Notes under the pieces: model-generated
The model's database searches: none
Told to the model about the DNA's origin: nothing
The model's input: the letters and a program-made list of their open reading frames with translations, nothing else
Position numbers and translations under genes: made by a program
Source: Gnetum montanum
Taxonomy: Eukaryota; Plantae; Gnetophyta
NCBI GenBank assembly: GCA_015680685.1
Contig: MNCI01002435.1
Coordinates: 88,570 to 152,569, forward strand
Length of the DNA: 64,000 nt
Direction of reading: 5' to 3'
Shown here: piece after piece, positions 1,774-58,115 of the stretch
Numbering within the stretch: position 1 is the stretch's first letter
How the letters are laid out: every line of letters begins with the position of its first letter

Positions 1774-2015
1774 CATCCAAAATGATGTTAAACTACCAAT
1801 CATCTAGTACGACGTTAAACTGCCAACAAACATCTGCAATGACGTTAAACTAGCCATGGTTAGAAATGGCTGGTTCCTTTTAAAGCTCCCTAAAACTATT
1901 ATTGCTTTTGGCCCACTATGACCTAAAACTGGTAATCCTTCTTTCTTTAACATAGATGTGATAGTCCATCATGACTTTAAATTGATGTACACAGCCCGAA
2001 ATGGCTTTAAACTAG
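1774..2015 (+). ncRNA. Cluster of ~6 coremin-like pseudoknot/hairpin motifs just after the gag-pro stop
   Basis: Examples: gtacgacgttaaactgc, ggcccactatgacctaaaactggt, tagtccatcatgactttaaattgatg, agcccgaaatggctttaaactag. Confidence 0.6.
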
Positions 2016-2352
2016 AGCTAGCATGTTATAAATTCACGAACTCTTGTTATGTTACATTAAATTTTCATTTACAAGTTACAAGTTACAATTCCAATTCATG
2101 CCTTCTCATTACTTTCTTTTTTTACAAATATTTGATTCACGTTTTGTTCTCTCATTTTACATTCACTACACACATATCTTCATGATAATACTTAAGAAAA
2201 AAAATAAAAAGAGAAAACATATAAAATAAAAAAAAAATATTGAATGTCAATATGGTTATAAAATTCCAACACATTATGCCATGATTAGATCCATATTATT
2301 ACATTTGTCCATGTTTCCATCAAACATCCAAAAAAAATCCAAAACATTAAGC

Positions 2353-7789: not shown

Positions 7790-10700
7790 ACTGCTACGTC
7801 CCACAATTTTGTTAGTACATAGATTAATTACCCAATGCCCATTTACATTTAACNNNNNNNNNNNNNNNNNNNNNNNNNNNNNNNNNNNNNNNNNNNNNNN
7901 NNNNNNNNNNNNNNNNNNNNNNNNNNNNNNNNNNNNNNNNNNNNNNNNNNNNNNNNNNNNNNNNNNNNNNNNNNNNNNNNNNNAAAGACAATATAAAAAC
8001 ATTTGCATGGTCATATACCAACATGCTAGGATTGGACCCTTGAATCATCCAACACAACATCATTCTTGATGGAGAAATCAGACCGGTGAAGCAAAAAGCA
8101 CAAAAGGTTAAACCTAAGGTAGCGTTAACAATTTGTGCTAAAATCACAAAGCTCTACCAAACCAGTTTCATTCGTGTTGTTGACTATTCTGATTGGGTAT
8201 CAAACATTGTCTTAGTCCCTAAGAAGAACGATAGTATACGCATATGCATTGACTTCAGTGATCTCAACACAGCCACTATAAATGATGACTTCCCGCTACC
8301 TAGCATTGATCAACTTAGTGACACAACTGCTAGGCATGCGCACTATTATCCTTTATGGATGGATTTCCATAATACAATCAAATAAGAATCAACCCAAAAC
8401 ATCAACTCAGAACAACCTTTATGACACCTTGGGCAAGATTCTGCTATACAATGATGTCGTTTGGTCTTAAAAATGCAGGTGCTACATATCAATGAGCAAT
8501 GACATATATATTTAGTGATTACATGCTCAATTTGTTCAATGATTATGTTGACGACATTGTGGTTAAATCTAAAACAACCGAACAGCATGCAAAAGATCTA
8601 GACTTAGTGCTTAAACGTTGTCTCAAATATGACCTTAGGCTCAACCCAAAGAAGTGTGTCTTTGCTGTTAAAACAAGAAAAATTCTTAGCTTCGTAGTCT
8701 CTGGAACAAGGATATGGTTAGACCCTGACAAGGTTAAGGCAATAATTAACATGCAACCACCAAAAAACCTTTCCGAACTACGTGGTCTTCAAGGTAGATT
8801 GGGATTCATTAGACGCTTTATCAAAAGACTAACAGATAATTTGAGACCCATGCAACACCTATTACAAAAGAATGTGCATTTCCAATGGACTCAACAATGC
8901 TAGGAAGCATCCAAAAACATAAAACAAGAGCTGGCTCAACTGCCAACCATTTATCCCCTACAAAGTGATAAATCCTTCTACATCTACCTTGCAACTTCCG
9001 ATTCTTCCATTGCATCTATGCTTTGTCAAAAATGTAAAGATGGAGTCGAGGTCCCTATATATTACCTAAGCCACGCTCTAATTGCTTATGAACAAAGATA
9101 CAACGACGTGGAGAAATCATGCCTTGCCCTTGTCTTCTCCTTGAAGAAATGGCAGCATTATCTCTTCCATAATCAAGTTTACATCATTTGCAAGAATAAT
9201 GTATTCTGCGCCATCACTAACAACATCTATGAGTCGAGTAGGATAGCTAGGTGGAAAGCGATGATCGCAAAGTTTGACTTACACTATGTCACTCAATCTT
9301 CCACAAAAGGTCAAGCAATAGTCACATAATTAATCGTCTCGCCAATGCATGATCAAGCAACGATAAACCCTAAATTCCCCGATGAGAATGTTAATAGTAT
9401 AGACACCGTACCTGATAACTACAAGTTAACACTTTATTTCGATGGAGCTTCAACTTCTCGAGGAGGAAGTGCTACGACCATTTTAACATACCCCTTCTGA
9501 GAAATCAAACCCTTTGTGTACCGATTAACCTTTTCCTACACCAATAATGTGGCAAAATACGAATGCCTTCTTAGAGGTCTTCGGGCAGCATTGACTTCAG
9601 GAATCACACGTCTTGTAGTTCGAGGTGATTTAGAGCTAGTCATTAATCAAGTCATGGAGGTTTATGCATGCAAGGCTCTCCATTTGCAACCATATCGTGA
9701 TTTGACTAAACATTTGTTGAGGTAATTAGTAGAAGTGGATATACAACATGTCCCCAAAAGAGAAAACACCATTGCCAATGCACTTGCTACAATAGCCCTA
9801 AACGTGACACCTGAAATAGTCCATGTGTTGCCTAACTCTATAACAAATTGTGCCGAACCTATAACCAATGGTCTCGATGAGATGCCTATAGCATCCGTTA
9901 GTACAACACATGTAATTGAATGGTACGATGACATAAAATAGTACCTTCTACGAGGTAAACCTCCACAACATTTGACAAATGCTCAAAAAGACGTCGTGCG
10001 AAAACACTCTCGACAATATGCGTTAATAGGAGACACCTTGTGTCGCAAATCCTATGAAGGAATTCTGTTGATGTGCATTAGTAGTATTGATGGTCAAACA
10101 ATTGTAGAACAAGTCCATGAAGGACTTTGTGAAGGGTACATAGCACCTAAAGCAATGACAATAAAGATTAGGCGCTTGGGCTACTACTGGCCACAGTGGA
10201 GTACGATTGCTTCTCCAAGGTTAGGACATGTGACATTTGCCAAAGGCATGGTAACCTAATACATGTGCCACCTAACAAATTTCACACAACACAAATCACA
10301 TGGCCATTCCAAAGATGGGGATTAGACTTAATTGGATTGATAACGCCATCATCCTCTACAAGACATAGTTTCATTATCACTACAACTGAATACTTCACAA
10401 AATGGGTAGAAGCTATTCCCCTTAGGAAGACCACGTTTAAACATGTTTGCACTTTCATAATAGAAAACATTGTGACTCGTTTTGGTATTTCAATGACCAT
10501 CGTTATTGACAATGGGCTACAGTTTAGCAATGCAGATACTAAAAGCTTCTGTGAAAGCCTAGGTATTAAACATGCATTCTCGTCACCTTACTACCTCCAG
10601 AGCAATGGTCAAGCGGAGGCTACAAACAAAACTATCGTCATGGTGCTCAAAAAGATGTTAAATAAGAGCAAAAGATGATGGCACGAACAATTAGTCTATG

Positions 10701-11155
10701 CATTGTGGGCATACAGAACAACACATCGCACATGTATAGGTAAAACTCCATATAGTCTTGTATACGGGTTTGAAGTTGTTTTACCTTTAGAGTTACAGGT
10801 TCCGTCGTTGCGGATAGCTCTCTTAGGCCTCCTCGATGAAAGCTAAACCAATGAAATGCACATTGCTGACCTTGACTTGGTGGAGGAAGAATGTGTACAA
10901 ACACTTGATTAGATCGAGTGGTACCAGAAACAACAACAGCAACGACATAAACACGATCTGCATAAGTGCCCAATTAAAGAAGGAGACCTAGTCCTTAAGG
11001 CCATCTATGAACATCTAGATAAATTCTCAACTAACTAGGAATGACCTTACTTAGTCACCAAGGCATAAAATAACAGAGCATTCAAGCTTGACTTGGATGG
11101 GAATGAGTTCGCTAATCCTACAAATCACCTGTACTTGAAATGGTACTATGTTTGA
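7790..11155 (+). pseudogene. pol: Degenerate pol: RT, RNase H, additional archaeal-type RNase H (aRH), integrase
   Basis: PMPIYI before the gap; AWSY..GLDP; RICIDFSDLN; YVDDIVV; RH EKSCLALV; aRH LYFDGAS..TNNVAKYE..RGDLELVINQ; INT H..H..CDICQ, WGLDLIG, DNGLQF, QSNGQAE; ends LKWYYV*. Frameshifts and stops present. Confidence 0.95.
7854..7983. other. Assembly gap (130 N)
   Basis: Run of n. Confidence 1.
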
Positions 11156-11174
11156 TGAACTTGAGGTACGTAAC

Positions 11175-11502
11175 GGTCTTGGCATCATGACCTAAAACTG
11201 ATACCATAGAATGGTCCAAGGGCTATGACTTGAAACTGGCACCATAGAATTTTTTGGAGTCATGACAATAAACTGATACCACAGAACCTTGTCTAGCATG
11301 ACACTAAACTGCCACATTTGTTCACCATGACGTAAAACTAGCATGCAGAGTCCACTAAGACTATAAACTAGTTTGCCTCTTCACAATCTGCTACGACTAT
11401 AAACTAGCACTACACCATCTGCTACGACGCTAAACTGGCACCGTCCAAAGGGTTATGACGTGAAACTAACCCGCAACAGTCCGCTAAGACTATAAACTGG
11501 TG
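11175..11502 (+). ncRNA. Tandem array of 10 coremin-like pseudoknot motifs at the start of the element A 3'UTR
   Basis: Ten units with conserved nGACnnnAAAC and covarying flanking stems, e.g. cgtccaaagggtta-tgacgtgaaac-taaccc and agtccacta-agactataaac-tagt. Confidence 0.7.
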
Positions 11503-12662
11503 ACATCATCAACGACAAGGCAATACTTGGAAAAATATGTTGATGTAATTGGCTATACCTATTCCACAAAAACTCGCTGCGTAATTTGTCTCACAGACCC
11601 TGATGAAGCTGATGTTTTTCATAACTCTATCTGCTTTGAAAAGTGCACACGATGGATCCATCTCCTTGGTTGTTTTCAAGTTTAAAGTACTTAGTTAACT
11701 AATTCATTTATGGTTTTCTTATCTTCTTGGAGTTGTGTTTGCAGGATGACACACCTGAGGCGTTCGTGCATAGGTGCACTTCATCATGATGGCAAGGTAT
11801 CACATTCTTCCTGATGCACATAACTGGGTTAATCAATCCATTCATAAGTACATTCCCCAACTACTGATACATTCCCTATTCCCCATCGTGTTCCCCTTAT
11901 CCTATTCAATTACACCCCCTAATAGATTCTACTCATCCCGAAGCTCTGGAAACACTATTGCACACTGTGATTCTTTAAGTAATGGCAACGCAAAACACAG
12001 TGCACGGTATATGATACAAATGCAAATGCATGATCACAAGTATAGCATGAAAAGCAAGCTCTTCCAAAAAGAACATAAAAAAAGAAAAGAAAAACAAACA
12101 AAAAAGAAAAAAAGAATAAAAGGATCAAAGAGCAAAATTCATGGAAAAGGTCTTCATGACCCTGTTGACATCATAGACCAAAGACCATTGGCTCTTCTCA
12201 TACAAACCCTAGGCGAGAAGGCAATTGTCTAAGAAAAACAGTTACACTCGTGTCTCAAACAACATCACGTGGCTTTGGTTGTTTACAATGGGCTCTCGTA
12301 AACACTCTACAAGAGTCATGTTTCTCCAAAGAATGCACCTCCTATGTCTTGGTTCCGAGTCTACTAAAAACTAGTTACCGATAAGAACTAAAGATATGGC
12401 TTGTTCATGTGAGAGCATTCCTCTCCCACAATTATAACAGTAATTATAACCCTTGATCAACTCTTGATTTCCCTAGTTACAACCAATCCCCTTGCATCTT
12501 GAACTGCACTTCCCCAATCCCATGTACTTTTGAACATGGTGTGATGACGTCTAGCCAGGGGCTGACGGGTAATGCTTGGTACTTGATTGATCATGGTGTT
12601 TTGTACTTCTTTGTAGACGCCTCTTGGGTGCATTCCTCTAGACGTCAACAAAGAGGGGTCAA

Positions 12663-14419
12663 TGAAACACCACTAATTTCGACCTAATACTTTAAAATGA
12701 GAACAACTCAAACCCTTTCAACCTTTCGAGAGGCAAACATTTGACTAAGGCATGTAACTCATGCTCAACTTGTTAAGCTAGCTTGTGCTCAGCGTGAGAA
12801 ACTCCAATAGCTTCAAAATCAAGTTAAAGATGGTCCAACTTGAGGGTGAAAGCCATCCTCAAGGGCCACTGCTATCCACTCCAAGTTTCAACATTCGGGA
12901 ATTCAAATTTCAAGACAAATTGGATAAATTTTTTTCACTCACGCTGTGGTCATGCTGAGGTCACACTCACAGCATGAGTATAGTGTGACCAACTCTGAGA
13001 GCCTCAAAACTAAGTCGAAATGGTTTGATTTCCTAGGTGTAAGTCATCCTTAGAGTTCATTGTTGACAACTTCAAGTTCTAGCCTCCAGAATTCCAAATT
13101 TCAGGTTCAAAATTGCAATTTTTTGTAACTCACGCTATGGTCACACTGCACTCACGCTGGCAATGTGAGTCTAGCATGAGTTACCAAAAGTGGTTTAAAA
13201 TAAGGCACATCAAGCTCAATTCTTGACTTGCAGATTACTCTCAAAGTCAACCACAGTCAGTCAATTACTATACTCAAGAAACAAGTTTCAAAGATCAAAA
13301 TTTGGTGTGAAATATATCATTTATAGCTCACTCACATTGCGATCGCGCTGAGGTCATGTTGGCAGGGTGAGTGCAGCGTGAGTACTAGTCACGCCCAGTC
13401 AAAATCACACCAAACACACGCTAAGGACATGCCAAGACAAAATCAACTCACGCTAGGAGTCCTGGTGAAACAGAGATGCCTCAAATAGCCACAAAACCAC
13501 TCAAATCAACATCCTGCAGCAGTTAGTTCAGGGACTAACAAGTTTCAAGTGAGCCAGAGTCAATCTCTCTTGTTGTACATTATCATCTTCATTGTAAATT
13601 TTCATCATTTGTGAGCTTATCAAACTCTTACGCTCCAAATTGTATCTGCTTCCATGGGTGTAAGCTAGCTTGTGTGAGCCAACACATGTTGTAAGATACA
13701 GTGCATTCGGTCAAGAACGTAGCCCACTTACATATGTCCAACTGACACGTAGCCGTCCATCTAACACCTGTCACATGATTCGTTTTTCTCTTATTTTTCA
13801 ACCATTAATCCATCTATGAGTTCCGTGCCTGAACCTGGCCAAACCTTATAAATACCCCATCCATCCACATAAATGGGGTTGGCAATTTTGAGGGTTGACG
13901 GCTTAGGAAACACTGGCTAGCAACTTTTGGAGGCTCAGGCGCACTTGACTCCTAGCATTTAAGCATCTGCAAGCATATCGCCCCGGGGCTTAGCACTTGA
14001 CTTGCCATTCACACACGCAACTACGCTTTGACTGGTGCACATTCATTCTAAGCAATATAATATAATTCATTTTTTCCTTCCATTATATTGTTTACTCTAT
14101 TTTAAATTTAGTTTACGCTATGTTTACAATACCATTTCTGTATACGCTCTATTTGCATTTCGTGTGTCATTGTTTACATTTCGAACATCAGTTATGATAA
14201 TCCAACACAAGCCATAGCTTACGTTTAGGGAAGTCCTTAGTTGATTTGCGTGCAGATCATCCAAGGCACTCTCCCTTCGTTTTCTTTTCCAGCTTGCCCT
14301 CACGCAAAGGCAGGGTCAACTGTGCCCGTTCAATGATCTTTCAGTGTTTTTTTTCCTTTCCAACCTTATGTCAATAATTTTGATTGGTACACCAACTACC
14401 AAGATTTTCTTTTGCTACA
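12663..14419 (+). repeat. LTR (1757 bp) shared by tandem elements A and B
   Basis: TGAAACACC...GCTACA termini as in C; PPT directly upstream; degenerate PBS directly downstream; TATA-like ccttataaatacc at ~13844. Confidence 0.85.
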
Positions 14420-15089: not shown

Positions 15090-18000
15090 CTACGAATGAG
15101 TCCACTAGAATAGACAGGAGTACAACCCCTCCTTGTTTGACATAATCCCACTCACTAAGTCCTACCACCAGTTGTTGTCCCAACTCATCCGTGCAAACAA
15201 GCATGATGCAAGGACAACCTACGAGAAAGCCTCGCAGAAGGAGGAAGATGAGTTCGAGGCCCACTTTTAGCATGAGAGCCCCTTCCACATCGTCTTCCAA
15301 CAACCACTCCCTAGTACAACCCCTCCTTTATTTGGTCCACCCATCCCCTTTGAGATGGTGACCATGCCAATTCAACCTTCCTCACAAGCAACTAATGCAT
15401 TTTCCCAACACTATGCTCATGTAGGGGCCACCTCCCAGCCCTAAACAACTCAAACATCCTACATCCTGCCTATCTCATCGGTGTTTGTAGTGTTTTTCCA
15501 ACCCACCCATGTGTGGCCCACTCCAATCACTGCACCCATCGCTCAGCCAATACATCAACAATCGTCCACTACAATGTTAGACTGGCAACACCCATCCGCT
15601 ATGACATTAAACTGGTAGACTCTACAACCAACAATTCAACCCCATGTTATCCAACCAAGACAAGCCTAGTGATGAGTGGCGAGGTACCCCTACACTCAAC
15701 CATACGAAACGAGCGTCGCACGCGCGATCCGGTCGAACTCCGCAGATGGACTAGTTGTGGTATCTAGATAGTTAGCCTTAGGTCACAGTTCGCTGTCTTC
15801 CCATCTAGACTAGTTTTGCATATGTCACGTATGGTTTAGTCTAGATGAGGTGTATGATGTGTCCTAATCTAATGCTACTCCTGATGGCAATGGAAAATAA
15901 TATTTAACTAAATCTAAGCTAAGAGGAAAAGGGTAAGAAAATCTAATCTAGCCTAAGTGCGACGAGCAACCGATTCCTTGATCAACCGTACACATCTTGG
16001 ACTTCGTGCACGACTGCCACTGGGACTACCAAGCATAGGCCTAGGTACGCCACTGGGATTACCAAGCGCAGACCCCAAATACGCCACTGGGTTACCAAGC
16101 GTAGATCCCCCTAGCTACACCACTGGGCTACCAAGCAGTCACACTTAAATGCTCGTAATCAAGTCGAACTCGTTCCGCTTCTAGGAGTTCAGGGTTGAGA
16201 GACTAATCGCGATAAGTAACCGATTCCTTAACTAGCCGTACACACCCGTAGATGCTCGTAGTCAAGTCGTACTTACACCGCGCTATGAAAGCAATAAATA
16301 ACATGAAATAAATAACAATAAATAAACTAAGTGAATGCTGCAATGATGAAGTAATCTCGATCTTTATTGCCGGTCATGTGCATGTCCAAGTATGGCACAC
16401 TCGAATAAAGACACCGTACAATCACATTCACCACACTGCGGGCAGACACGGGAAAATTCTAACTCTGGAGGGATCAAATTGCCAGAGCTTCGCTACCTAA
16501 AACTAGGATCCCCAATTGAGGGAGAGCCGCCTCTTATTTATAGACATGACGGCTGACTGCGATATCGCGTACGCGATATCGTAGGGAAGGACGCGATATC
16601 GCGGCCGACGCAAACCGCGTCTCATCACCTAGCCAATGCAACCGGCTAGCACATCTGCAAGCTTGGATTAAGCATTCCAACTAATCCAAAGCTTGATGGA
16701 GAAGATCAACTGACTTAAGGCTACCTCCTCTAACACCATCAAGGTGGTGGACTTCTATGGAGATGACCCCATAAGTCCTACAGTACCACCCCTAATTCTT
16801 CCAACTGGGGCCCAACTGCCTCAATTTACCAAGTACAACGGAGAAGGGGATCCCAATGCACACTTGGTCACATTTTGATCTGAATGCCTACTCCTTCAAG
16901 CTTGGCCACATGCCATCATACATGTCTTCCCCATGTCACTCACTGGCAAGGCCTTAGACTGGTATCATGTGTTACCCAATGCCTCAATCTCCTCTTTGGA
17001 AGATCTCATAAGAATGTTTGTGACACACTTCAAATCCAACCTAAAGCCTGAAGCAACCCTCAACCAGCTGATGCAAGTTAAGCAGGGGCCTCTAGAGCCT
17101 ATGTCAAAATTCCTCCAACGTTGGAATGTTGCATTGAGTGAAATGCATGAACCCTTAGCACAGACACACCTACTAGCTATCTTCAAAGGTGCAGTGAATC
17201 ACTTCATCAAGTCCAAACTATATTATCTAGCCCCAAAGTCTCTTAGCCAATCCTTTACCCAAACAAAAGGCATAGAGGAAGCAACACAAGCTAGCAATGA
17301 TCCAACCCATGTGGCCTACAGAAACCAACATGCTTACAAGCAAAACAAAATAGTGATAACAGTAGCCACAAGCACAAAAGTAACCAACCAGGGCCCCATA
17401 GCTAAGCAGCCCAAGGCCCCAGCTAACAAAACCACCAATTCTGGCACCAACTCACCTACATTGATAGGGGCTACCCCAAGGCCCAAATTTCAGCGCAAGG
17501 ACTGCTCAAAGTATACACCACTATCGGTGCAACACTCTGAACTACTAATGAAACTCTTGAAATTTGGGCAAATCCAACACAAACACGTATCGACAATTAC
17601 TTGTCAAAAACATGATAAGTACTATGAACTACTAAGGAACCCCACTTTAGCAGTGCCAAATGAGCCCCCAATTCCACAACACTTCAAGCTAGACCAATAC
17701 TATCATTACCACCAATTGGTTGGTCACAGTACAGACAACTGTCGTGCTTTGCAGGATGACTTGTAGAGAATGATAGAAGGGGCCCAAATGGTGATCAACA
17801 CAGTGAGTCAATCCAACATAGATAATGCCTCCTATGTCATAAATTCCATTAGCATAGGTGGTAAGTCTAAACCTACACAACGACCTTTTGTGATCTGTGT
17901 GCCTCCCAGCAAGGCAAGGGTCCCCTCCGCTTCCATAAGCAAGAGGCCTTCCTTTATTATCAAAGTGCCACCTCGAGCACCCATAGCATCCTTTGTGGTC

Positions 18001-19519: not shown

Positions 19520-19950
19520 ACATGGCCCAGAAAGGCCTTAAACTAGCCTATGGCCCGAAAAGGCCTCAAACTAGCCTACAGCTTGGAATGGCCTAAAACT
19601 ATCACTTTTGAATTGATTTCCTTTCATTCATCCATTTTAACTCTGTTTACAATAGGTGTTATTTGATGTTGTTTTCTTTTTAGTTGATTTTTTGCAGGAT
19701 CTTATAGGCATGCAGCACAACCATGCATGCAGTATTGCACCTTACACAAGCAAGGTAAGCACCAGTCCGCTATGACTATAAACTCGCATAGATAGTTCAC
19801 TATGACTATAAACTGGCATAGCTCGTCCTTAGGTCATGACGTTAAACTGGCACAACATCCACTATCTGCTACAACATTAAACTTGCATCCAACAATCTAC
19901 TAGAACTATAAACTAGCACATCACGGTCTGCCAAGACTTTAAACTGGCAT
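19520..19950 (+). ncRNA. Coremin-like motif arrays of element B (3 GGCC-type units at 19520-19602; 6 GTC/GAC units at 19764-19949)
   Basis: tggcccgaaaaggcctcaaactagc; cagtccgctatgactataaac; tcgtccttaggtcatgacgttaaactggc; ggtctgccaagactttaaactggca. Confidence 0.65.
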
Positions 19951-22604
19951 GTAGCTGATCTTATCTGAACACTTGCCATTGCCTTGGGAGCACTCATAAC
20001 ATCATCGCCTTCCACCATTCTGGTGATTCTTTTGAAGCATTTACAATTAGTGTGACATTCAAAAGACTTGCAGCAGCATTGCCCTGGCACTTTCACTGGC
20101 TTCCCGAGCACTTGTGACTGGCACAACATTAGACACATTTGCAACATCTTCATAGTTTTACACCTATGGCATCTTCACATCTGGCATTTGCACTTACATT
20201 TCACATTTTGTGGTTTCCTTGTCCTCTCTTAGTTGTGTTTGTAGGACAAAGCCTTGGAGGCGATTGTGCAAAGGTGCATCTCATCGCGACGGTAAGTCAC
20301 CACATTGCTTTGATGTGCATGATTGGACTAGTTGAGCCACTCAAGAGTACACATCCCCCTCATTCCTGTTATAGCCTATGCACATCCATTTATTCATCCC
20401 AATATCCTCTCATCCTCCCCATACTCATGATTTCACACTCCTCTGATGGATACGCGCTATGACACACATGGCATTCTCTTCATATCAACTGTTGAACCCA
20501 TGGACGATGTAATACAACTTTTCCTATGTGGAGCCTCTGTTGCATGGTCAAAGCCTAAGTGGATGTAACACAACTCATCCCAAGGAGGAAACACCTATCC
20601 TACAAATGCGATGTGGATGCATCAAAACAATGCTCATCTTCTCGATGGCCAAATTGCAGCTAGTATTCAGTGGTAAGCTGAACCCAAAGAAGGTTCGCCT
20701 CACAACACAAACAAACAAAAAATCAAAAACACTGCAGCTTCACAATTGGCCCATCCTTGGATCGACTTTGATCCTCCCATGAGTACTCTGATGAAAGGTC
20801 AACATTTCAAGGGCAAGCTACTTCATGCCATGATCACCATCAGCCATGCTAACTTTGCATTTTACATCATGATCCACTATTTGCATTTCGTTTCCACAGT
20901 TTGCATTTCATCTTCCTAACATCGCCTATACCCCTTGTCCCTTAGCATAACCTTATTCTCATAGCACTCTTGAACATGACAAAATGATATCTGATCTTGT
21001 ACTGACAAGTGATGTTGGTGGCATGTCTGCTGTGATGTTTTGTAATTCTTTGTCGACGTCTCTCAAGCCACTCATCCAGAGATCAACAAAGAGGGGCCAT
21101 TGAAACACCACAAAATTTTGGGTCTTATCATCTTGAATACAAATTTGGCTAAGTGTAAAAATGGTGACACTTTGCCCATATTTTTCCAAGTGTTGAGTGT
21201 AGCCGGCACCAAACTGCTAGACTTGAAAAATTGTTCTAAGTGTTAGGACGATGGCACAATTGCTATGCCCACAATAATCAAAGCGATAATAGAATACATC
21301 ATCGATGACAATGAAATCATGATGCTGATGAACCTCTATTGGCGACTTGAAGCATGCTTAACATTGTAGAGGTAGTTAAGATCCCAACTAAGCATGTAAA
21401 AGATAGTCAAATCAAGTGCTTAGACATGATCAATATCCCAAGTTTTAAGGGGAATAAAAGTCTAGCACACAAACACATCTACAACCTTTCCACAATGTTT
21501 GTGCCTTGTAAAACATTGAAAATGACTTGTAGAAACTCAAGCTCATCCTCAGGACACTCATCAAAGAAGCAAAAAGCTGGTACTGATCCCTGGAGCTAGA
21601 ATCTATCCACCAATGTAGTAAAATGCTTTAGCTATTTAATGACAAATACCAAACATACTCTAGAGTGTCTAATCTGAGAAGGCAAATCCAAGGTTGGAAA
21701 TACGGAACACATGAACCCTTGGATGTTTCCATGGGTACATATTATTCTCTCTTACACTAATGCCTTGGCCATGGTCATTCTCAAAGGAAGTAACTTTGTG
21801 ACATCATAGATGGGCTTAGAGTAGAAACTAGAAGAACTCTTAGGGTTTATGCCCAAGGCAGACTATCCAAATTAAGATCTCATCAAATCCAAAGGCTTAT
21901 AAAGCACATAGTAAAAGAAGAAGATGAGTTACAGAAAAGGGAAAGTGTTAGGGATCCTTTCATTAGAAAAAGGGAGGTCCAATTTTGTGACGAGGAGGAG
22001 TCGCCACTCGATGAAGTGGTGAATAGGAAAACCTTGCCTATTTAAAAATTTGTTTATGATATTTCGGCTAAGGTTGATAAATTATTGAACTCTTTGGATG
22101 AAAAGTGTCAAATTACTATGAAAATTGCTGAAGCATCTAAAAAAAATAGTGATCATGACTACAAGAGGTGAAAAGAAGCTAAACGTGCCTACCAGAGAGG
22201 TAAGGGTAAAGTCACTGCAATGGAAGAAGTTGTGTAAATAGACTTTGATGATGATACTAGCTATGACATTTGTCAATATGAACATCCAATGGGTTTTTTC
22301 CCTATGGTGTCACACTTACAAGAGTTTGGGGTGTACGTGTTGAATCCTTGATTAGCACATAGGCAAGAACTTAGATGGTTACCTTATCCTCAAGGCAATC
22401 CAAGGCAGTTCCACCAGCAACAATAAGCTTATTACCCAACTGGAGCTCCACCACAACCATATGAGTAATACCAATAATGGCACCAACCACAATTGTGGGG
22501 AATTCCATCACCCAAATAGTAGTACCCTTATAGGCATTTAGATCCACTTCCTAATGAATAAGCCAATGGTGAGCCCTTATATCATACGGTGGCTCATGAT
22601 CTTG

Positions 22605-23960
22605 TAGGAATTTGATCTCACAATGGTAGATCAGAAAGGGATCAAGAATGTGATTGTTGACCACCTTTCTTGACTAAGAGCAAGAAATGACCAAGTACCC
22701 ACTGAAACAAAATGGTATGATGGCATCCTTACTTAGCTTCTCACTTAGGAGATGCCACAAGATTTGGACTTTAGGAAGAAACAACAATGTCTTCATCAAG
22801 CAAAGTAGTTTATGGAAATTAATGGACCCCCTTATAAGGTGTGTGCCAATGGCTTGTTTCATTGGTGTGTCCCTGATGTGGATCAACTATGCATTCTCCA
22901 AGGTGCTCACAAAGGCCCTTTCAAAAGCCACTATGCAAGGAGGTACATGACTAGAAAAATTTTGATGGCAGGATACTATTGGCCTACAATCTTTAGGGAT
23001 ACCCACTAGTTCATCTGATCTTGTAAATGTTGTCAAAGAGATGGTGGAATGACTGCACAAATGGAGGGTCCTCAATAGTGGATTCAACCATTGAAGCCCT
23101 TTGACATATGGGGCATAGACTTCATGGGTCCCATCACACTCATGTCCAATGGAAAGATGTATATCATTGTAGCAATTAACTACTACATCAAATGGGTAGA
23201 AGCAGCAGTTGTCACTAACTGTACATCATCCACTGCTACTAGATTCATACAATAAAATGTTATAAATAGGTTTGGGTTGCCACATGCACTAATTTCTGAC
23301 AATGGAACTCATTTTATAGATGTAACTTTTCAAAAACTTATCCAATGCTTGGGGGTTGAACATAAATTAACAACACCCTATCACCCCCAAGCCCATGATC
23401 AAGCAGAGGTAACTAACAGGGAGATCACAAAGATTCTAATAAGAATTGTTAGTAAATACAGGTGAGACTAGAGCATAAAACTCAACGATGCCCTTTGGGC
23501 CTACTACTCAACATGGAAACTCCCTATTGGCTACTCTCCCTTTAAGCTAGTGTACAGAAAACTTCTAATGCTTCTAATTCAATTTGAGCTCCATACACTC
23601 TTAATGGCCTATGAACTAAATCTTGACCTAAGTCTAGCACAAAAAGAAATACTAATTAACCTGAATGTGCTCAACAAGAATTGATTAGTGGCCCTATCTT
23701 TGAATGAGGTGTACAAGACATTCAATAAGCAATGTCATGACCTTAGAATAAGTAAAGAAAAATTCCAACTTGGTGATAAGGCCCTCTACTGGAACCCCAC
23801 ACATGAACCCCAAAAGACAAAGTTTGAAACGTTGTGGAAGGAACCTTATATAATTGATCAAACTTTTTCCTCTAGGGCCATGTTAATTTACAAACCTGAA
23901 AGCCCAAGTAAAAAGTAGTTGGTCAACATCCAACAAGTAAAACCTTTCCTTAAACTAAGA
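22605..23960 (+). pseudogene. pol: RNase H C-terminus + integrase remnant
   Basis: Motifs as above; PR/RT are missing between the gag-like Q/P-rich segment and the RH end. Confidence 0.85.
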
Positions 23961-46609: not shown

Positions 46610-49600
46610 ACAATTCTAGGACATAATAATCGTTGATGAGATTTGGCTCTCTTGGTTTGTTTTGCACTGGGTGCCTTCATCATTTTTTGAGTTTGATTCC
46701 ACAGATTTACTTATGCTTCTTTGTTTTGTAGTTCACACTTTACTAGTCTATTTATCTTATCTGGAGTTTTAATTTATGTGGAGATTTTTCCGTGTGATTC
46801 TTAAATGCTTTTTTCTGCATATCCAGATCGTTTTTTCTTGATGATAAACTCCAGGCAATCATTATATCATTACTGATGCGTACATGTGTAGTACATTTAT
46901 GGTTGATTTACCTTTTAGTTTGGGAAAGAGCATACGGAATGCCTTGCTAGCTCGTGAAAGCTCTTGAACTCCAAGCAAATGAATTTGTGCTTTGTAATTA
47001 TTTCCGGTGGAAGCATGTGAGCATGAAAGCATGGGATCATGGACATCATGCCATGCCATGTCTTATACATTAAAAAATCTAGAAATTGCAAACAAATCTC
47101 AAATGTACATCCAGAAACTATCCCATTTCCAAACAATTTGCAAAACTAGGGCCAAATCCCCTACAGCTCCTCCATGTCATCACTTGGCCAACAAGACTTT
47201 GGCAAACAACTAGAGAAAACCAATTATCAACCTTAGGATCATAAGGACAGCAGAGAATGCACAAATTTGATGAGTAGAGAGAACAACAGTGCATTTTAAG
47301 CAGAAAAAAACGTGCATTTGAGAAGCAAAGACAGCAAGATATGCTAACCCTAGCAAAATATATATATGCACCGTCAAGAGCCATTAGAACAATAACTTGA
47401 GAGGCAAAAATTAAAATTGTAGAGAAATGTTTTCCACCAGTTATTTCCATTTCTTCTTTTGGATGGTGAAGTTTTTTTATCAAAAATTGTTGGACTTTAA
47501 TTTAGAGATGAACACAATAAAGAAGTGGGCTGTGTTTTAATTATAAGTTTACAATTTCGGTAGGCTTTGCAAGTTATATAGAGGATGCAGGATTTGAGCA
47601 GTGCTTTGTTGAGCCAGTTTTCAAAGGTATAATGTCATATGCAATTGGCAGATTTAATTTGGTTTGGTAGATACTACTGAAAACAACCATTATAAAAGCT
47701 GAATTTGAATTCTCAGTGTATCATTCAATTGGTAATTATCAAAAATATAAACAATTTTTAGTTTTCACTAAGGAAAAAGAATAGTTTCAAACAAACATAA
47801 AGGAACGAAATACTTGCTGAGTAATGATTCCATCACAAAATCATGATAAGCTAAACAGAGCAAAGCAAAGCTTTCATTTCATTCTCCACTTAACGTCTCT
47901 TTTGTTTTAATGTGTCCTCCCCTGCTCTCTCTGCCAATACTATGATTTATAGGAGTATTTTCTGATTCTAGTTGCATATGGTTAAGAAGGCGGGAGGAAA
48001 TTGCAACAGTTATACAGGCATATCTGTATAACCTTTATTAGAGTTTTTGCTTCATGTAATGCAATGTTAATTAGTAAAATAATTTACTTGAAGAAACGCT
48101 TGAAATTGAATGGTTTTTGTAGAAAACTGAAGATGACCTCCTAGGTGTATTCTGAGTCCACCATTAAATTTAGCATGGTAAAAAATATTGGAATTTATCC
48201 CTTATTTGGTAGAAATGCACTTTAGGTTAGAAAATTATCATTATTTGAAATCTTGCCTTTGGTAGGGTTTGAACTATTAATCTCTGAAATTTGTCTGTGT
48301 GTATTGATCAAAGATGATATCCTTAGTGGATTGGGAATGGACCGTTGTCAAGTTGAAAACATTGGAGACAGCTTTGTTCAAATTGGAGTAGGAATGAGGA
48401 AGTTATGGTCCTTCAAGCATCTTAAATCTGCCTCTACTGTTTGAGATTTGAATTTGTGATCTTTTCCTCAATACACATGTTCAAAGGTGTTAGATTTGGT
48501 GTGGGGCTTCTATTGTTGTGTTTACTGACTCTCATACCCTCTGACACTTGGAAGAAATTTATTGTGCAATGGAGACTGCCTGGAAAATGCAAAATTGGAG
48601 ACTCCCTACAAATCAACATTGGGATGATGATCCATATCTCTCAAATTGTTGAACAAAATTCATCATATGAATAATTGAAACAAACCTTTGTGAAACACCC
48701 CAAAAAATTGTGAAGTCATTCTCGCTTCACTTGGCCTTGCAATCCGCGGAACACCATGGCAGTTCTTCAGGAGGAGAATGCCCTGAGCCTAGGCCGGCTA
48801 GTTCGGCAAATTTTCTACTTTGGGCATGGACGGGCCTTACATCATCCTGCTTGTCCACCCAAGTAGCCTGCCCAACTGACAGCCTACTCAAAAACGGTGC
48901 GCGGAGTTGGCAGCAGCATTCTGGATGCACGAAACAGTTCGGCAAGTTTTCTAAGTCACGAAGTCTGCTACACTACGCTACGACTCGTAGCGTAGCACGC
49001 TTTAGAAAACGATGGCAGAACGAAGTGCTACGCTACGCTACACCACGTAGCGTAGCATAGCAACAACTTCGTTACCACTCCCCTTGCCCAATTTCAGGAT
49101 ATGCAGCAATGTCCCTTCCTACCAGGAAGCGGCGGACCATGTCTGCTGCTACACTACGTCGAGCTACATGGCGCAGCAAGGCGTAGCAATCTTGCGGAAG
49201 AGACAGAAGGCAGCTCAAAGGGCAGAATCGGCAGAGTTCGCAAGACTTGCATCGCATGAGACAAAGTTTGCAGATCGGCAAAACTTTCACGATTAAGGCC
49301 AGTTGCTACGCTACGTAGTGTAGCAAGCATGCAACATATAGCAGAACGTGCGACAAGGTGCTACGCTACGCCAAGCATGCTACGCTACAAATCACAGCAA
49401 GGCATGAGGGTGGTTGTGCGACATTAATGCACTTCACCTAATTTGACCATTGGCACATGTCTCCAAACGCTGACGGCGCAATTACGGCGTGGCAGGCTCG
49501 TAGTTATTGCATGACGGGTTTGCGTTACAACGGCCTCATAGGTCCAACGGTCATGCATGGCACAAATGGTGCTAGCAAGTCAACGAAAGCCCAAGGCACG

Positions 49601-50388
49601 TAGCGTTCAAACTGTCTCTTTTGCATACCCTTGGTCCTATAAATACCTTGGCAAGTAGCATTCAAAAAGAGGCCGGAATTTCTTGAAGTAAGTAGCATCC
49701 AAAAAAGTTAAAAGATTTTTGGAGAGACAGCATTGAGAGATTCGGGCTTGCTCCTTAACAAGTTTCTTTTTACATCGAGCATTGTAAGCTTCCTGTTTGA
49801 CACTGCAAACAGTTAGCATTTTTAGCTGGCATTTTGTTCTATCCTTTTTTTCCTTTTTTCTTCTACCACCTTGGTAGAATCCCTGTGCGGCCAACATTCA
49901 GGTCCGCACCAAAGCGCACCACTTGCTTTGCTCGACATGTCCTGGTCATTCTCGGGATCTCTGCACGTCGTCGCACTGTGCAACCGATTGTATCCACCCT
50001 AATGGAGCAAACTTGTAGTTCTTGAGCGGTGCATGTTTCTAACTACATTTTACCTTATTTCCTGCCTGTTGTCTCGTTTTGCATTATTTTCCTGTTTTAT
50101 TCATTTTTAAGCATTACTTCGCATTATTGTGGCATTTTAAGCTGTTTCTTTTCCGCTTTATTTATTTTCGAGCATTATTTCGCATTCCATTTCGTCTCAA
50201 AAATATACATTGCAAAAGGCTATATTGACGCCGATGTAAGTCCCTGTTTGATCGACCAGACCGTTCAGGGCACCATGTGTCCACACACACCCAACACGAC
50301 CCTCCCGCGGGTATGGGGTCGAAACTGTCGTGCCCATTGACCCCCCGGTGTTTTCCAGCCGTCGACGTTTTCGGTCGCTACAATTTTC

Positions 50389-50405
50389 TGGCGCTAGAAG
50401 GAGGG
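50389..50405 (+). promoter_or_regulatory. PBS complementary to the plant tRNA-Asn 3' end
   Basis: TGGCGCTAGAAGGAGGG is the reverse complement of ...CCCUCCUUCUAGCG-CCA (tRNA identity from memory). Confidence 0.8.
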
Positions 50406-50469
50406 CCTTTTGTTGCCTTCGCCGTTTGTCACGGTAGTTCTGTGAGCCTTTTGCGCCCTGATACACATG

Positions 50470-51305
50470 AGTGTAGACGCAACACCCTCTTGTGGTTGTT
50501 TGCGCTTTGTGCGGTGCAGATCGGTCGCCTTGACGGTTCCTCGGGAGCCCTATAGAACACAAGGCCTCCGATCACCGGTTAACTAGCTCTTACGGTTGTC
50601 TTGCATGTGTTTTGTACCCCATCCTGTGTGGTACAGAGCGGTCGCTTCGACGGTCCTTCGGGGATCCTGCGAGACGCAAAGCCTTGTCGATCGCTAGTTA
50701 GCTTGCCCGTCTTATGGTTGTCTTGCATGCGTTATGTACCCCATTCCTTGTGGTACAGAGCGGTCGCTTCAACGGTCCCTCGGGGATCCTGCAAGGCACA
50801 AAGCCTTCTAGTTAGCCTGCTTGTCTTACGGTAATCTTGCAAGCCTTCTACACCCCTGTACGCATTAGCGTAGACTCGACACCATATGTGGTTGTTTACG
50901 TGTTGTGCGGTGTAGATCGGTTGCCTCGACGGTCCCTCCGGGATCCTGTGAGACATAAGGCCTTTTGACAATTAGCTAACTTGCCTTCCTTTCTTTTTTA
51001 TGGTAGTCTTGCATGCGCTCTACACCCTAGATCGCACAGGCGTAAGCGCGACACCCTTTTGTGGTTGTTTAGGCCTTGTGTGGTGCAGGTCGGTCGCCTC
51101 GACGGTCCCTCCGGGATCTTGCGAGACATAAAGCCTTCTTGATTGCCAGTTAACTGAACTTGTCTTACGGTAGTCTTGCACGTGCTCTGTACCTCATCGC
51201 GCACTAGCATAAACGTGACACCCTTTTGTGGTTGTTTATGCTTTGTGTGGTATAGATCGGTCGCCCCGACGGTTCCTCCGGAATCTGGCAAGACATAAAG
51301 CCTCC
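50470..51305 (+). repeat. Six imperfect 110-180 bp tandem repeats in the 5'UTR of C
   Basis: Core ggtRYaga(t)cggtcgcYtYgacggtYcctccgggatc at ~50512, 50630, 50752, 50909, 51082 and 51249. Confidence 0.85.
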
Positions 51306-51387
51306 TTGTGTTGCTCTTTCAGTCTCTTTATTCTTTTTGCGCTTCTTGCGCCTTTTTTTCCTTTTTTGCATAATTACTTGCTTAGCA

Positions 51388-54300
51388 ATGGCTTCCACGA
51401 CCACCGTTGTTGACACCTTCAATGCGGAGGTGCCCTTCACGATTCAAGGCACCACTGGTGCTAAACAATCGTTGAACCCAATGATGGAAACACGATGATC
51501 CCTCAGAATCCAAAATCAAGGACTTGAGGGATTGGCCCAGCAATATGAGCATTACAGCTTCCTTTGTGCAAAGGTGCAGGTCAGTCTGCCCTTGGATTTA
51601 CACGAGCTCGAAGAAAAACGTAGCTTCGAGTTCGCTTACTGCAACGGGAAGGAATTCGTTCCTACCCCCGGCGTTTTGTTACCTTTAACACAAGCGTATC
51701 AAAGGCTCTTGGACCAACTAATCCAGTTGGCCAGGCTTAGGGAGCAACAGGACACAGCGTCCGACTAAGAGGACACCTTCCAAAACGGACAGGAGGAACT
51801 CGATTCCCAATCTGACGAGGGAGGCCAAGTCAACCCCATTCTTATCCGTCCCACCCAGTCCTTCTGGGCCAACCCGTTGTCTGTCACCGCCCCATTTGCC
51901 ATTACGCCTATGCTTCCGCAGCCTACAGCTGCAACTGCAATGGGTAGCCATACCACATTCCAAGCATATCCTTGCACTTATTCCCCTATTGCGTTCACAG
52001 CAGCTATGCCCCCGCAAACTGATTATCAGCACATTCCTGCAGTATGTAACATACCTATCACGGCTACCCTACTGCATGTTCATACTATACCTTCGCAACC
52101 GCACATAACTGCCATGCCAATTCCTACGCTAGCATCTATTCCACCCATAGTGGTGGGCCCCGGTCTATCCACGTGGTGGGCACCGTTCGCTTCTTCATTT
52201 GTTCTACAATTGTTGCAGATGTCTCACCACGTTCGCCCTCAGACCTACTTTACCCCGCAAACGGTACATCCTAATACAGGGACATGGTCTGTCCCGCTGG
52301 TGATTCAAACGGTCTATTCGGTGGCTCAACCCGTTGTTACTGCTATGACAGTACCACCCACTAGGTGGTGGACAACGCAAACAACACCTACAGCGGGGGC
52401 GGCCTCGACGGCACCGTTGATGGGTCAGCCCGCCACCGCCACCATGCCGCATGTGGGAGCTGCCTCTTCAGTCCCTCAACTGTCTATAGCGTCGCCAGGT
52501 CTGGACCAAGCGTTTTAGCTCATCCAGACCCTCAATGAGGAAATAAAACGCCTAAAAGCAGTGGGGTCCGACACGGTACAGGTCATGGACTTTTATTAGG
52601 ATGACCTCGTCAGCCCTGCAATCCCTGCTTTAATGTTACCCCCCGGGATGTCTCTCCCACACTTCACGAAGTACGACGATGAGGGAGATCCCAATGCGCA
52701 TCTTGTCACTTTCAGGTCTGAGTCTTTGTTGTTGCAACAATGGCCGCACATGATCATTCGTGTCTTCGCCATGTCCCTAGCCGGGAAATCCTTAGATTGG
52801 TACCGCGCGTTGCCACGCTCATCCCTTTCAACTTTGGAAGAGCTCCTGACCTAGTTCGTGACATGCTTCAAGTACAACTTGAAGCTAGAAACCACGCTGG
52901 ATCAGTTGATGAGTGTGAAACAAGACCCGCTAGAACCAGTCCAAAAATTTATTCAACGTTGGAGCACAACCCTTAATGAAATCCGCGAGCCCATCGTGAA
53001 GGCTCACTTGTTGGCCGTCTTTAAGGGTGCAGTAAACGACTTCATCAAGTCCAAACTATATTACCTCGCTCCTCGCTCTCTTAGTCAGGCTTTTGCTCAG
53101 ACTAAGAGCATACAAGACGCGGCCGAAGCAAGCAAAGACCCGGCCTATATCGCTTACAAAAGCACCTTCGCAAAGAAGGATAAGGGTAAGGGCCCAACAA
53201 CCACAGTAGCCGCTGTGGCAACCGAGGCCAAGCCCAAGCCCAACAGTAGCGGTAGCAAAACTAACAAGAAACCGGCCATACCTACGGCTAATCCTGCGCC
53301 GAAACTGGGCCAAGCACCGCAACCCGTTGCACCTACACCCGAGACATCTGCATACACCAAACCCAACTTTGAGCACAAAGACCGCTCAAAATACACCCCA
53401 CTGCCTCTCAAACCTTCAGAACTCCTGAAGCAACTGTTGGCAGCGGGATACATCCAACACAAGCAGATGTCGGAAGAAGCAAACGCAAGACATCAACGCT
53501 ACTGCGAGCTCCTTAGGAATCCCTCTTTGGCCCTGCCCAATGAGCCTCCGGTCCCTAGGGGTTTCAGGTTAGACAGGTTTTGTGACTACCACCAACTGTG
53601 TGGTCACACCACGGATTATTGTCTGTCGTTGCATAATGATATCCAAAGATTAATCGACCTGGGGAAGCTGGTACTAGACAAAAGCAACCCAGTCTGCCCT
53701 GAAAATCAATCTATGTATGTCTACACAGATCCCCTCAACGCCAATAATGCTGGTTACGTAATTAACACCATCGGCATTGACAACAATCCCACGCCACCCC
53801 GCCAGCCATTTGTGATCCGTGTGCCTCAGCGTAGTGCACTAGCACCGCCAATGGTTGGTCCAAGCTTGTAGCTGCCCTTCATCCTAAAGGTACCACCATC
53901 AACATCCACCTTTGCACTGCCTGTTGGCGAGGCCATGCGGTCTTGTTAGTTAACACCTCTAGCTCCATTCATTATCAGGGGGCCGATGTCCTCAAAGGCC
54001 CCTATCTCGCACAACACAGCTGAGCAGCCTCCTCGCCTTGCAAGGCGAGAAGTCCGCTTTGTGGACGAAATGTCGAAGGGAAGTACCGTCAAAAGCATCC
54101 CCATGCCTACGTTTTCGCCCCTTGCATCTGTACCTTCGTCGTCAAAGGCGAAGATCAACATGACTACGCAGCCTGCATTACCCTGTCGGCAAGGATCTGA
54201 GCCCAGATCTGAGTCAACCTCCCCTCAGGAGATTCGTCTTTTGGGGTGGATCGAAGAGGAGGAAAGTGTCAAACAAGCGAGCGGCCAAGACCTTTTGGAC

Positions 54301-55206
54301 ACCCTCATCCAGGTCAAGCAAGCTTTAAAGCAGAAAAATGCCACACCAAGCTTGTACGATCTAATCATGACTTCTGTACCTCACTGCGAGGCTCTAGTCT
54401 GCATATTAACGACGATTCTGGTCGACGAAAACATGCTAGCGGAAGAGGAAGCGATTCACTCGGTAATGCTTTTCTCTGTACCCGTAGAGCCTGCACCATC
54501 CCAATTAACTTTCAATAACGACGTCATTAGGGAAGATCCCGAGGGGGGTCAAGTAACTACGGTGCCTCTCTTCACCACAATTTGGGTCGGCCAACACCGG
54601 ATCCAAAGGGTACACGTTGATGACGGGGTTGCCACAAACGTTATTCCCTTCCCTATTGTGGACAAGTTGGGATTGGTCGACCAGATTAAGCCCACGGCGA
54701 CGTCATGTCTGAGGTCCTTCAACGGGGCACGGGTCCTGGTGAAGGGCACAGTTCACATAAACTTCATAGCAGGGGATCAGTTCCCCACAGATGCAATGTT
54801 CATCGTAGTCGAAGAAATGCCCGGGTTTAACTTGATCTTGGGAAGATCATGGTTAGCGCAACTTAGGGTTGTTTCCTCGCCCATACACCAAGAAATCCAC
54901 TTACCGTACGCAGGTAGGGAGGTGGTAATCCGCGGTGACGAAGTTGCAACGCAAGCAATCGGCAACGTGGACATGGAACAAGGCTCAGAGGTTACGACCT
55001 CTGAGAATGAAGCGCTTGTTCATGCATACGTTAATCATTCAACGGAAGGATCAGCTCAACGAGCCGACTCCCAAACCAAAAACGCATGGGTCGAGTTGCC
55101 CTTCCAAGCAGAGGACAATGATGTGAACAAGGGCCCTGGCGAAACACCTTGGCCTTGTGTTCCAATCAACCCACGACGGGTCAAGAAGCAGCTACGCATA
55201 GCGTAG
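51388..55206 (+). pseudogene. gag-pro: gag-protease of C: one continuous frame broken only by ~7 point stops
   Basis: ORFs at 51532, 51877, 52633, 52858 and 53986 are all in the same frame; FTKYDDEGDPNAHL, FCDYHQLCGHTTDYC, QRVHVDDGVATN, FNLILGRSWL. Confidence 0.92.
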
Positions 55207-55294
55207 CAACCCTACCGCTTCTTGCCAGGTTGCCATCCCTTGTACATTTGCCGTTTCCTTGTCTTGTCAGCATGCCGTCCTGTCGACATGCTAC

Positions 55295-55452
55295 GCTATG
55301 GCCCAAAATGGCCTAAAACTAGCATTGTTGCTTTCCACCTTATTAACATGCCGTTCTTCTGGCATGTTACGCAATGGCCTAAAATGGCCCAAAACTAGCA
55401 TGGCCCGAAATGGCCCAAAACTAGCGATGGCCCGAGATGGCCTAAAACTAGC
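55295..55452 (+). ncRNA. Four GGCC-type coremin-like units after the gag-pro stop of C
   Basis: atggcc(c/t)(g/a)a(a/g)atggcc(t/c)aaaactagc x4. Confidence 0.6.
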
Positions 55453-55622
55453 ATACGAGAGCATAAAAACTTTACATGGTACACAAGTTAACATAAAATT
55501 GGTTCCTTTTCTGAAGTTTTTTCATTTCATTTAAAAATTTTTGCCTATTGGCAATGTTTGCAAAATTTTCAAAAAAAAAAAAAACAAAAAAAAGGAGAAA
55601 AAAAAGGAAAAATCCCATGCTG

Positions 55623-57869: not shown

Positions 57870-58115
57870 AATCCGCTACGACGATAAACTGGCAACAACA
57901 TCGAGCAGCGTCTGCAATGACGATAAACTAGCAGCATCGGCAACCGTCCACTACGACGTAAAACTGCCACCGCTAGTCCACTATGACTATAAACTGGCAT
58001 TGCTCGTCCGCTACGACGTTAAACTGGTGTGTACGGTCTATTGGGACCTTAAACCGGTACAGCGGTCCGCTGGGACCTTAAACCAATACACGGTCTACCA
58101 AGACCTTAAATTGGG
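57870..58115 (+). ncRNA. Tandem array of 8 coremin-like pseudoknot motifs in C
   Basis: cgtccgctacgacgttaaactggtg, tagtccactatgactataaactggc, ggtctattgggaccttaaaccggta and others. Confidence 0.7.

Follow-up and report, generated by a model that had tools for sequence, protein, structure and literature searches.

Behind the decayed pol gene of an LTR retrotransposon, designated element B, lie ten tandem copies of a short unit that resembles the coremin motif of RNA viruses. The array is confirmed as a tandem repeat of real, non-chance units, and these units probably constitute tandem coremin-type RNA elements that act as roadblocks to 5'-3' exoribonucleases on the retrotransposon transcript. 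The window, i.e. the whole 64-kb stretch of DNA that was analysed, contains 40 curated units, all on the sense strand, and all four of its Tat-like elements (A to D) carry arrays. The coremin-type motif is a known kind of RNA element, for which the LTR retrotransposon, judged from sequence, appears to be a new host class.

According to the available text of a 2021 review, xrRNAs have been characterised in viruses only, and their existence in eukaryotic genomes is posed as a question (PMC8374639). In a 2025 survey, as far as it is available, the tandem arrays located between pol and the 3' LTR are of unknown origin and function (PMC11963269). Coremin-like arrays in retrotransposons join these two stated questions. 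A literature search, which covered mostly titles and the beginnings of abstracts and few subscription papers, found no report of the coremin motif or of natural xrRNAs in LTR retrotransposons, in agreement with the preliminary description of this DNA, which knew of none; an earlier mention under a different name, e.g. as a "hairpin motif", is possible. Covariation, which the coremin papers lacked, is supplied by the hundreds of natural variants. Two classes in one register, non-canonical R.A and Watson-Crick, emerge among these variants, and this constrains a fold for which the available text of the coremin papers gives no solved structure.

The array and its host elements

The first unit begins 19 nt downstream of the pol stop codon (TGA, 11153-11155), and the similarity to pol ends at 11149. 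Each unit is composed of a 4-bp hairpin (stem 1) with a loop of 6-11 nt, followed by NN-AAAC-U and then by bases complementary to the loop (stem 2). Hexaloops are present in six of the ten units and loops of 10-11 nt in the other four, and at least three contiguous pairs between loop and downstream bases can be formed in nine of the ten. Units with four Watson-Crick pairs occur 18 times on the plus strand of the 64-kb window and never on the minus strand, as compared to a mean of 0.07 and a maximum of 2 in 100 Markov shuffles; a two-unit pattern has 7 matches in the window and none in 100 shuffles. The preliminary description had placed ten units about 20 nt after the pol stop and had counted roughly 40 units in all; both figures hold, chance is excluded by the shuffles, and every stem pair that it quoted is present in the sequence. 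Its statement that the spacers are unrelated does not apply to all of them, as the first three units have a common spacer and periods of 37 and 31 bp are detected within the array by Tandem Repeats Finder. A further candidate unit at 55366 proved to be mis-anchored and was removed from the curated list. Rfam at gathering thresholds gives no match in the window, and minimum-energy folding of the array region, in a model that does not include pseudoknots, is no better than that of shuffles (z 0.04).

The pol of element B encodes reverse transcriptase (RT), RNase H (RH), a second, archaeal-type RNase H (aRH) and integrase (INT), and is interrupted by many in-frame stops; the copy is old and partly decayed. 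The extra RNase H is described as the defining feature of the Tat clade of plant Ty3/gypsy elements (PMC6317226), and Pfam identifies in element B both the RT-RH-INT order and the additional aRH. The location of the aRH between RH and INT is that reported for Ogre/Retand (PMC6317226), and an aRH before INT is also found in a Cryptomeria protein. Among the nearest integrases, identity to that of element B is 72% (unnamed), 56% (Cryptomeria) and about 51% (Prunus), and no relative was found among the viral contigs searched. The 3' LTR starts about 1.15 kb behind the array. A 130-N assembly gap (7854-7983) separates element A from the RT of element B.

Elements A, C and D are related elements that possess gag-pro and are without RT or integrase. 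Arrays are absent from another gypsy integrase region (22833-23903) and from a copia element (from 40680) in the window. The family of element D is very abundant in a DNA run, and its sequence words are common to runs of five organism labels, for two of which the shares are small; no RNA run was among those listed for it. In its 5' leader (50400-51310) element D contains 122- and 167-bp tandem repeats, the copy number of which varies among family members. In element C, the region 15660-16700, which lies between gag and the stray units, contains 33-bp repeats and a part similar, in inverted orientation, to 35546-35737, and is probably a nested insertion. The coordinates are summarized in Table 1.

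Table 1. Features located in the window and the observations that identify them.
Feature	Position	Strand	Remarks
Six units of mixed types, element A	1774..2020	+	begins 12 nt after TGA at apparent gag-pro end
Antisense ORF, 3' region of element A	5621-6121	-	no Pfam match
Decayed pol, element B (Ty3/gypsy, Tat-clade LTR retrotransposon)	8002..11155	+	Pfam RVT_1, RT_RNaseH, RVT_3, rve in order; tblastn 8002-11149
Predicted sense intron, element B	11166..11744	+	pattern scan; donor-like AG/GTACGT 9 nt before first unit, acceptor-like TTTGCAG/G at 11744
Ten coremin-like units, element B	11175..11505	+	starts 11175, 11213, 11250, 11290, 11319, 11349, 11385, 11416, 11442, 11478
Polypurine tract and 3' LTR start, element B	12650..12670	+	TG at 12663; from sequence, resembles PPT/LTR starts of C and D
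Two decayed units upstream of gag, element C	15563..15620	+	starts 15563, 15593; one more single unit at 18017
Three viral-type units, element C	19524..19607	+	second stem-1 pair U-A to C-G
Six pairing-type units, element C	19764..19952	+	9 nt after donor-like AG/GTAAGC
Element D, apparently non-autonomous, Tat-like	48691..60777	+	LTRs 48691-50382 and 59077-60777, 92.8% identical
Four viral-type units, element D	55300..55456	+	C-G second pair; loops include CGAAAU, CGAGAU; 93 nt after gag-pro stop
Antisense ORF, element D	55832-56605	-	no Pfam match
Eight pairing-type units, element D	57870..58119	+	between antisense ORF region and 3' LTR; two with G-C replacing the usual A-U stem-2 pair

Base pairing in the units and comparison with viral coremin

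The outer pair of stem 1 is Watson-Crick in 34 of the 40 units, against 11.2 on permutation, and all four pair types are represented. Scored as purine/pyrimidine complementarity, a test which is immune to C>T and G>A decay, the pair is complementary in 39 of 40 units against 20.6. The second pair is U-A in 26 and C-G in 8 of 35 units, and the inner three pairs are intact in 28 of the 40 units (7/10 in the element B array). Stem 1 comprises 160 cells in all, with 135 Watson-Crick, 23 A-C or G-U and 2 other combinations; that nearly all breaks are A-C or G-U fits decay after insertion.

Two types of unit are distinguished by the loop. A purine-rich loop facing A20, the viral R.A type, is found in nine of the 40 units, and the other 31 are of the pairing type, in which the loop can pair with position 19 onward; all ten units of the element B array belong to the latter. 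The pair at position 19 is A-U in 33 and G-C in 2 of 35 units. The third pair of stem 2 is Watson-Crick in all ten array units against 4.6 (p about 0.001) and in 26 of the 31 window units against 17.7; in the decay-proof purine/pyrimidine test, p is about 0.1 in the array and 0.005 when the 31 pairing-type units of the window are taken. Covariation at stem-2 positions two, four and five is not significant in the window units. Among the 35 hexaloop units, 80.0% of the cells are paired, as compared to 69.1% when shuffled (0/500 shuffles reach the observed value) and 11-42% when the partners are slid, and these controls and the permutations overstate independence since the units are related by duplication, a relatedness that is partly controlled.

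The preliminary description had both helices covarying. In the decay-immune test on the 40 units, this stands for stem 1; the signal of stem 2 is weaker, is confined in the window to one position, and is partly explicable by CpG decay. The pair ACTA/TAGT, which had been taken as independent covariation, has to be given up as such because C>T and G>A decay of a common unit can produce it. Units 58035 and 58064 seem to have swapped partners, but substitution of G-C for A-U together with decay is the better reading.

As far as the cited papers are available, coremin (xrRNA-C) comprises a 3-4-bp hairpin with a YGAD loop, followed by a conserved linker, and also needs a second hairpin (PMC6546385), for which two base pairs suffice in vitro (PMC10520033). 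Hexaloops of the form YGNNAD, including CGAAAA, CGAAAU and CGAGAU, are resistant to Xrn1 in the viral context, and CGAAAC is not (PMC10520033). Replacement of the second stem-1 pair U-A by C-G keeps Xrn1 resistance in vitro (PMC6546385). The Watson-Crick coremin (xrRNA-WCC) is described with loop base 7 pairing with position 19 and base 6 with position 20, and with G needed as the first loop base; Xrn1 is not stalled by BWYV-type frameshift pseudoknots, which are similar in shape (PMC10321173).

The window units have in common with xrRNA-C a 4-bp first hairpin with a C-G closing pair, a Y-first loop with A next to last, NN-AAAC-U, the hexaloop variants, and tandem copies at the start of the 3' UTR, and nine of them are of the viral R.A type (compared with the available descriptions in PMC6546385 and PMC10520033). 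The closing pair is Y-R and the first loop base Y in all 40 units; the linker AAAC is found in 37/40 and U19 in 38/40, and both are present in all ten units of the element B array. Other viral features are less regular. YGAD or YGNNAD loops are found in 1 of the 10 array units and 11 of the 40 window units, with YRNNAN in 33/40. A20 is present in 4/10 and C21 in 1/10 of the array units (17/40 and 4/40 in the window); position 21 also varies in RNA-virus units, where it is C in 20/60. A second hairpin is predicted for 14/40 units, 1/10 in the array, which is no enrichment over the 34% of random positions. In the array 12-22 nt separate a unit from the next one, versus a mode of 12-13 nt in viral-type units. 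Taken together, none of the ten array units combines all tested viral features, and five window units outside the array have every one except C21 and the second hairpin. Several loops in the window (CGAAAA, CGAAAU, CGAGAU) are the very ones reported as Xrn1-resistant in the viral context, and several units have loops ending in C, an ending that abolished resistance in that context (PMC10520033, in its available text). C-G replaces U-A as the second stem-1 pair in eight of the nine viral-type window units and in 2/60 RNA-virus units.

The likeness to viral coremin was also assessed with a covariance model whose input was restricted to 60 units from RNA-virus contigs. With E up to 1 it matches the window 23 times, always on the plus strand and always at a curated unit; four of these matches lie in the element B array (best 21.1 bits). 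Fungal-type units from 19 chosen loci are scored well by the same model. The window units pair the loop with positions 19-20 in the published register, 7-19 and 6-20 (PMC10321173, available text). An H-type pseudoknot with a coremin core, as first proposed for these units, is thus supported by the covariation, the RNA-virus covariance model and this register (PMC10321173, available text), and the units are predicted to fold as H-type pseudoknots of the luteoviral size class.

The units differ from xrRNA-C in their host, which is a nuclear LTR retrotransposon, in array size (as many as ten units), in loops of up to 11 nt and in a second hairpin that is not evident; most units put 3-6 Watson-Crick or wobble pairs in place of the non-canonical R.A contact. 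Such pairing is shared with xrRNA-WCC, in which, as described, the next-to-last loop base pairs with 19 and the preceding one with 20 and an A-U to G-C exchange is tolerated (PMC10321173). This is in contrast to the tetraloop, the first-base G and the G8-C18 pair of xrRNA-WCC (PMC10321173, available text): the window has no tetraloops, Y is first in 40/40 units, the last loop base is unpaired and stem 2 is longer. The nearest tested construct in the text available is PK18, which has C as the first base and two pairs and is Xrn1-resistant (PMC10321173). On the evidence of these sequences, the elements appear to carry near-canonical coremin units together with a Watson-Crick pairing variant with Y as the first loop base, and the element B array is the variant.

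Luteoviral -1 frameshift pseudoknots (BWYV, PLRV), in the available description, have the same size and topology, with a short stem 1, a first loop of 1-2 nt, a 3-bp stem 2 and an A-rich second loop; they differ in that the window units stand in non-coding sequence behind stops and in that no Xrn1 stalling is reported for BWYV-type knots (PMC10321173). Class 1-3 xrRNAs (flaviviruses, Solemoviridae, Tombusviridae) have the tandem arrangement, the proposed role and a one-way resistance that is likewise proposed for the units in common with them, and differ in their larger folds and a ring around the 5' end, according to the portions available (PMC12397905, PMC8374639); the window has no Rfam match. 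Tat/Ogre/Retand elements have tandem arrays in their pol-3' LTR regions that are alike in location, variable copy number and proximity to antisense ORFs, and that differ in having been published as family-specific repeats of unknown function, with no RNA structure named in the available text (PMC11963269, PMC3305785).

Occurrence outside the window

The two-unit pattern is found in at least 125 stretches of metagenome contigs, in 47 of viral contigs, and in 9 of prokaryote genomes (596 billion bases searched). Since window units were the source of the database patterns, retrieval is partly circular; position, strand, the outer stem-1 pair and the third stem-2 pair are not fixed by the pattern. 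Four self-mirror contigs (L065, L072, L115 and L142) are assembly artefacts, and one strand of each was counted. The 40 single matches of a single-unit pattern in viral contigs were read as chance and left out.

Among the matches listed, the metagenome set comprises 120 loci in 59 clusters with 389 unique units, 342 of which combine U19 with A as the penultimate loop base. These 342 units, again among the matches listed, divide into 188 of the R.A type, 140 of the pairing type and 14 others. The third stem-2 pair of the pairing-type units is Watson-Crick in 103/140 against 42.4, with all four pair types, and in 23/44 against 11.2 when counted once per cluster; the fourth pair, 41/140 against 33.2, is not significant (all among the matches listed).

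Ninety-four arrays are contained in 78 fully fetched metagenome loci, and 46 of them are in loci with an ORF of at least 170 aa; in 24 of these 46 the array starts at -45 to +130 nt relative to a sense stop, as compared to 2 for an antisense stop and 4.2 at random (among the matches listed). Nine chromovirus pol loci in three clusters, among the metagenome matches listed, have a tandem pair at or just after the stop, and the nearest named relatives of one such fungal-type chromovirus (L050) are from Agaricomycetes. A metagenome cluster of 24 loci with long pairing-type arrays contains decayed gypsy RT/RH fragments in two loci (among the matches listed). In viral contigs the unit is located just after a sense stop in 40/46 loci, and an RdRp or an RNA-virus capsid is encoded in 27 of the 37 loci scanned. 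The presence of the motif in RdRp-encoding genomes points to a function in RNA. The placement at the start of the 3' UTR, which had been likened to that in viruses, is borne out by a position behind stops that is common to RNA viruses and fungal-type chromoviruses.

Three arrays stand, in sense orientation, behind apparently cellular eukaryotic ORFs: about 120 nt past the stop of a PHD-finger protein ORF (L095:3992-4032), from 18 nt after a PA14-domain ORF (L100:416-603), and from about 850 nt after a dynein heavy chain (L042:692-2090). They are candidates for xrRNAs in cellular mRNAs. A reading of the motif as confined to eukaryotes was dropped, as three of the nine prokaryote matches look like genuine pairs in leaders. 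These canonical, non-coding pairs are L166:14-80, L167:1490-1545 and L171:1490-1550; those of L166 and L167 precede a gene, which in L167 follows nusG. A canonical tandem pair about 10 nt after a circovirus-type capsid ORF (L085:136-188) may indicate use by a small DNA virus. Tandem units also stand between genes in a giant-virus contig (L177) and in a 74-kb DNA-virus contig (L181/L182), and a cluster of contigs without a long ORF (L052, L053, L057, L071, L102, L120, L147) has up to 15 mostly viral-type units. Units are present inside the pol-like reading frames of two retroelements (L098:7625-7701; L165:207-232 and 1490-1540), where a use in ribosome pausing is possible; L165, which has a retroviral SH3 domain, was in a bacterial bin and is probably contamination.

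Proposed function and competing explanations

By analogy with the viral element, the A-rich linker would pack in the minor groove of stem 1, and degradation of decapped or sliced transcripts by XRN4, or nuclear XRN2/3, would halt one base short of a unit. The hairpin of the next unit, or the longer stem 2, would replace the second hairpin. The products would be nested 3'-coterminal non-coding RNAs, of about 1.5 kb plus part of the LTR for element B, which would carry the PPT, U3 and R, and in A and D also the strand complementary to the antisense ORF. Other xrRNA classes are described, in the text available, as resistant in one direction (PMC12397905). If such one-way resistance extends to the coremin-type fold, it would let reverse transcriptase pass, as this enzyme comes from the 3' side. 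The many copies of the unit would give redundancy. If active, the arrays would allow retrotransposons to derive stable non-coding RNA from decay, and host transcripts reading into an array could have their turnover altered. RNA reads over element D, from three runs of the same species label at low depth (921, 534 and 214 reads) and from libraries not made to show 5' ends, form no pile of ends; 77-94% of the reads run on into unlike sequence.

More broadly, and more tentatively, we suggest that plant Tat elements and fungal chromoviruses may carry working coremin-type exoribonuclease roadblocks common to RNA viruses. The repeat arrays behind pol could then be xrRNA batteries that make non-coding 3' RNA from host decay, and high-copy retrotransposons a large source of xrRNAs in eukaryotic genomes, some already behind cellular genes.

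The main rival to the exoribonuclease roadblock accepts the knot as real and has it stop ribosomes, or other 5'-3' translocases, behind the stop codon; it would block post-termination scanning, re-initiation or read-through, or shield the 3' UTR from nonsense-mediated decay. We regard it as unlikely, if deserving of attention. The short distance to a sense stop is the strongest constant of the units, and units are found inside the pol-like ORFs of L098 and L165. Coremin is reported to stall scanning ribosomes (PMC10520033) and to promote -1 frameshifting in vitro (PMC10520033, PMC10321173), and the Watson-Crick type, as described, frameshifts without a second hairpin (PMC10321173), which fits the missing second hairpin of the window units. 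Nevertheless, the arrays at 57870 and 19764 are far from any sense stop, one unit should suffice where ten are present, and the link to nonsense-mediated decay is conjectural. Position does not separate the two readings, as viral xrRNAs are also located at the start of the 3' UTR. A role in the replication cycle, namely packaging, dimerisation, or pausing and template switching of reverse transcriptase, would account for the retention of knots in A, C and D, which are without RT and integrase and must be packaged in trans; we consider it very improbable, as the same motif occurs in RNA viruses without reverse transcription, and the other gypsy integrase region and the copia element of the window are without knots.

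It could also be argued that the units are neutral tandem repeats, which are common in Tat 3' regions, and that their palindromes and apparent covariation stem from duplication and the decay of methylated C. The tandem-repeat arrays between pol and the 3' LTR of Tat/Ogre/Retand elements were reportedly treated by Macas et al. in 2009. Retand arrays are described, in the available text, as frequent, family-specific and of unknown function (PMC11963269). Some units of the window are recent duplicates, 23 of the 25 stem-1 cells that are not Watson-Crick carry the A-C or G-U mark of decay, and the array region folds no better than shuffles (z 0.04, pseudoknots being outside the model). Against this, the core is conserved among units whose spacers and loop lengths vary, the outer pair retains its purine/pyrimidine covariation (39/40 vs 20.6), all four stem-2 pair types occur in metagenome units, also once per cluster (23/44 vs 11.2, among the matches listed), and the same core is found at the same place in RNA viruses and in fungal-type elements. 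The neutral reading is already largely refuted and very improbable.

A last alternative concerns the pairing-type arrays of B and C alone, which would lie at the 5' end of an intron and there either protect the intron, once excised, from nuclear XRN2/3 or adjust splicing at the donor. Donor-like sites precede both arrays by 9 nt, with acceptor-like sites 490-579 nt further on, and such donors are rare (9 on the plus strand in 64 kb). This reading, too, is very doubtful: B and C are related in their 3' regions, so that they amount to one observation, and no comparably strong donor precedes the other five arrays of the window or the viral ones. In element C the splice-like signals span 19755-20244, and small exon-like pieces are located at 19698-19754 and also after 11745 (B) and 20245 (C). 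The strong splice-like signals framing the 3' regions of B and C suggest a spliced sense transcript that would drop the array.
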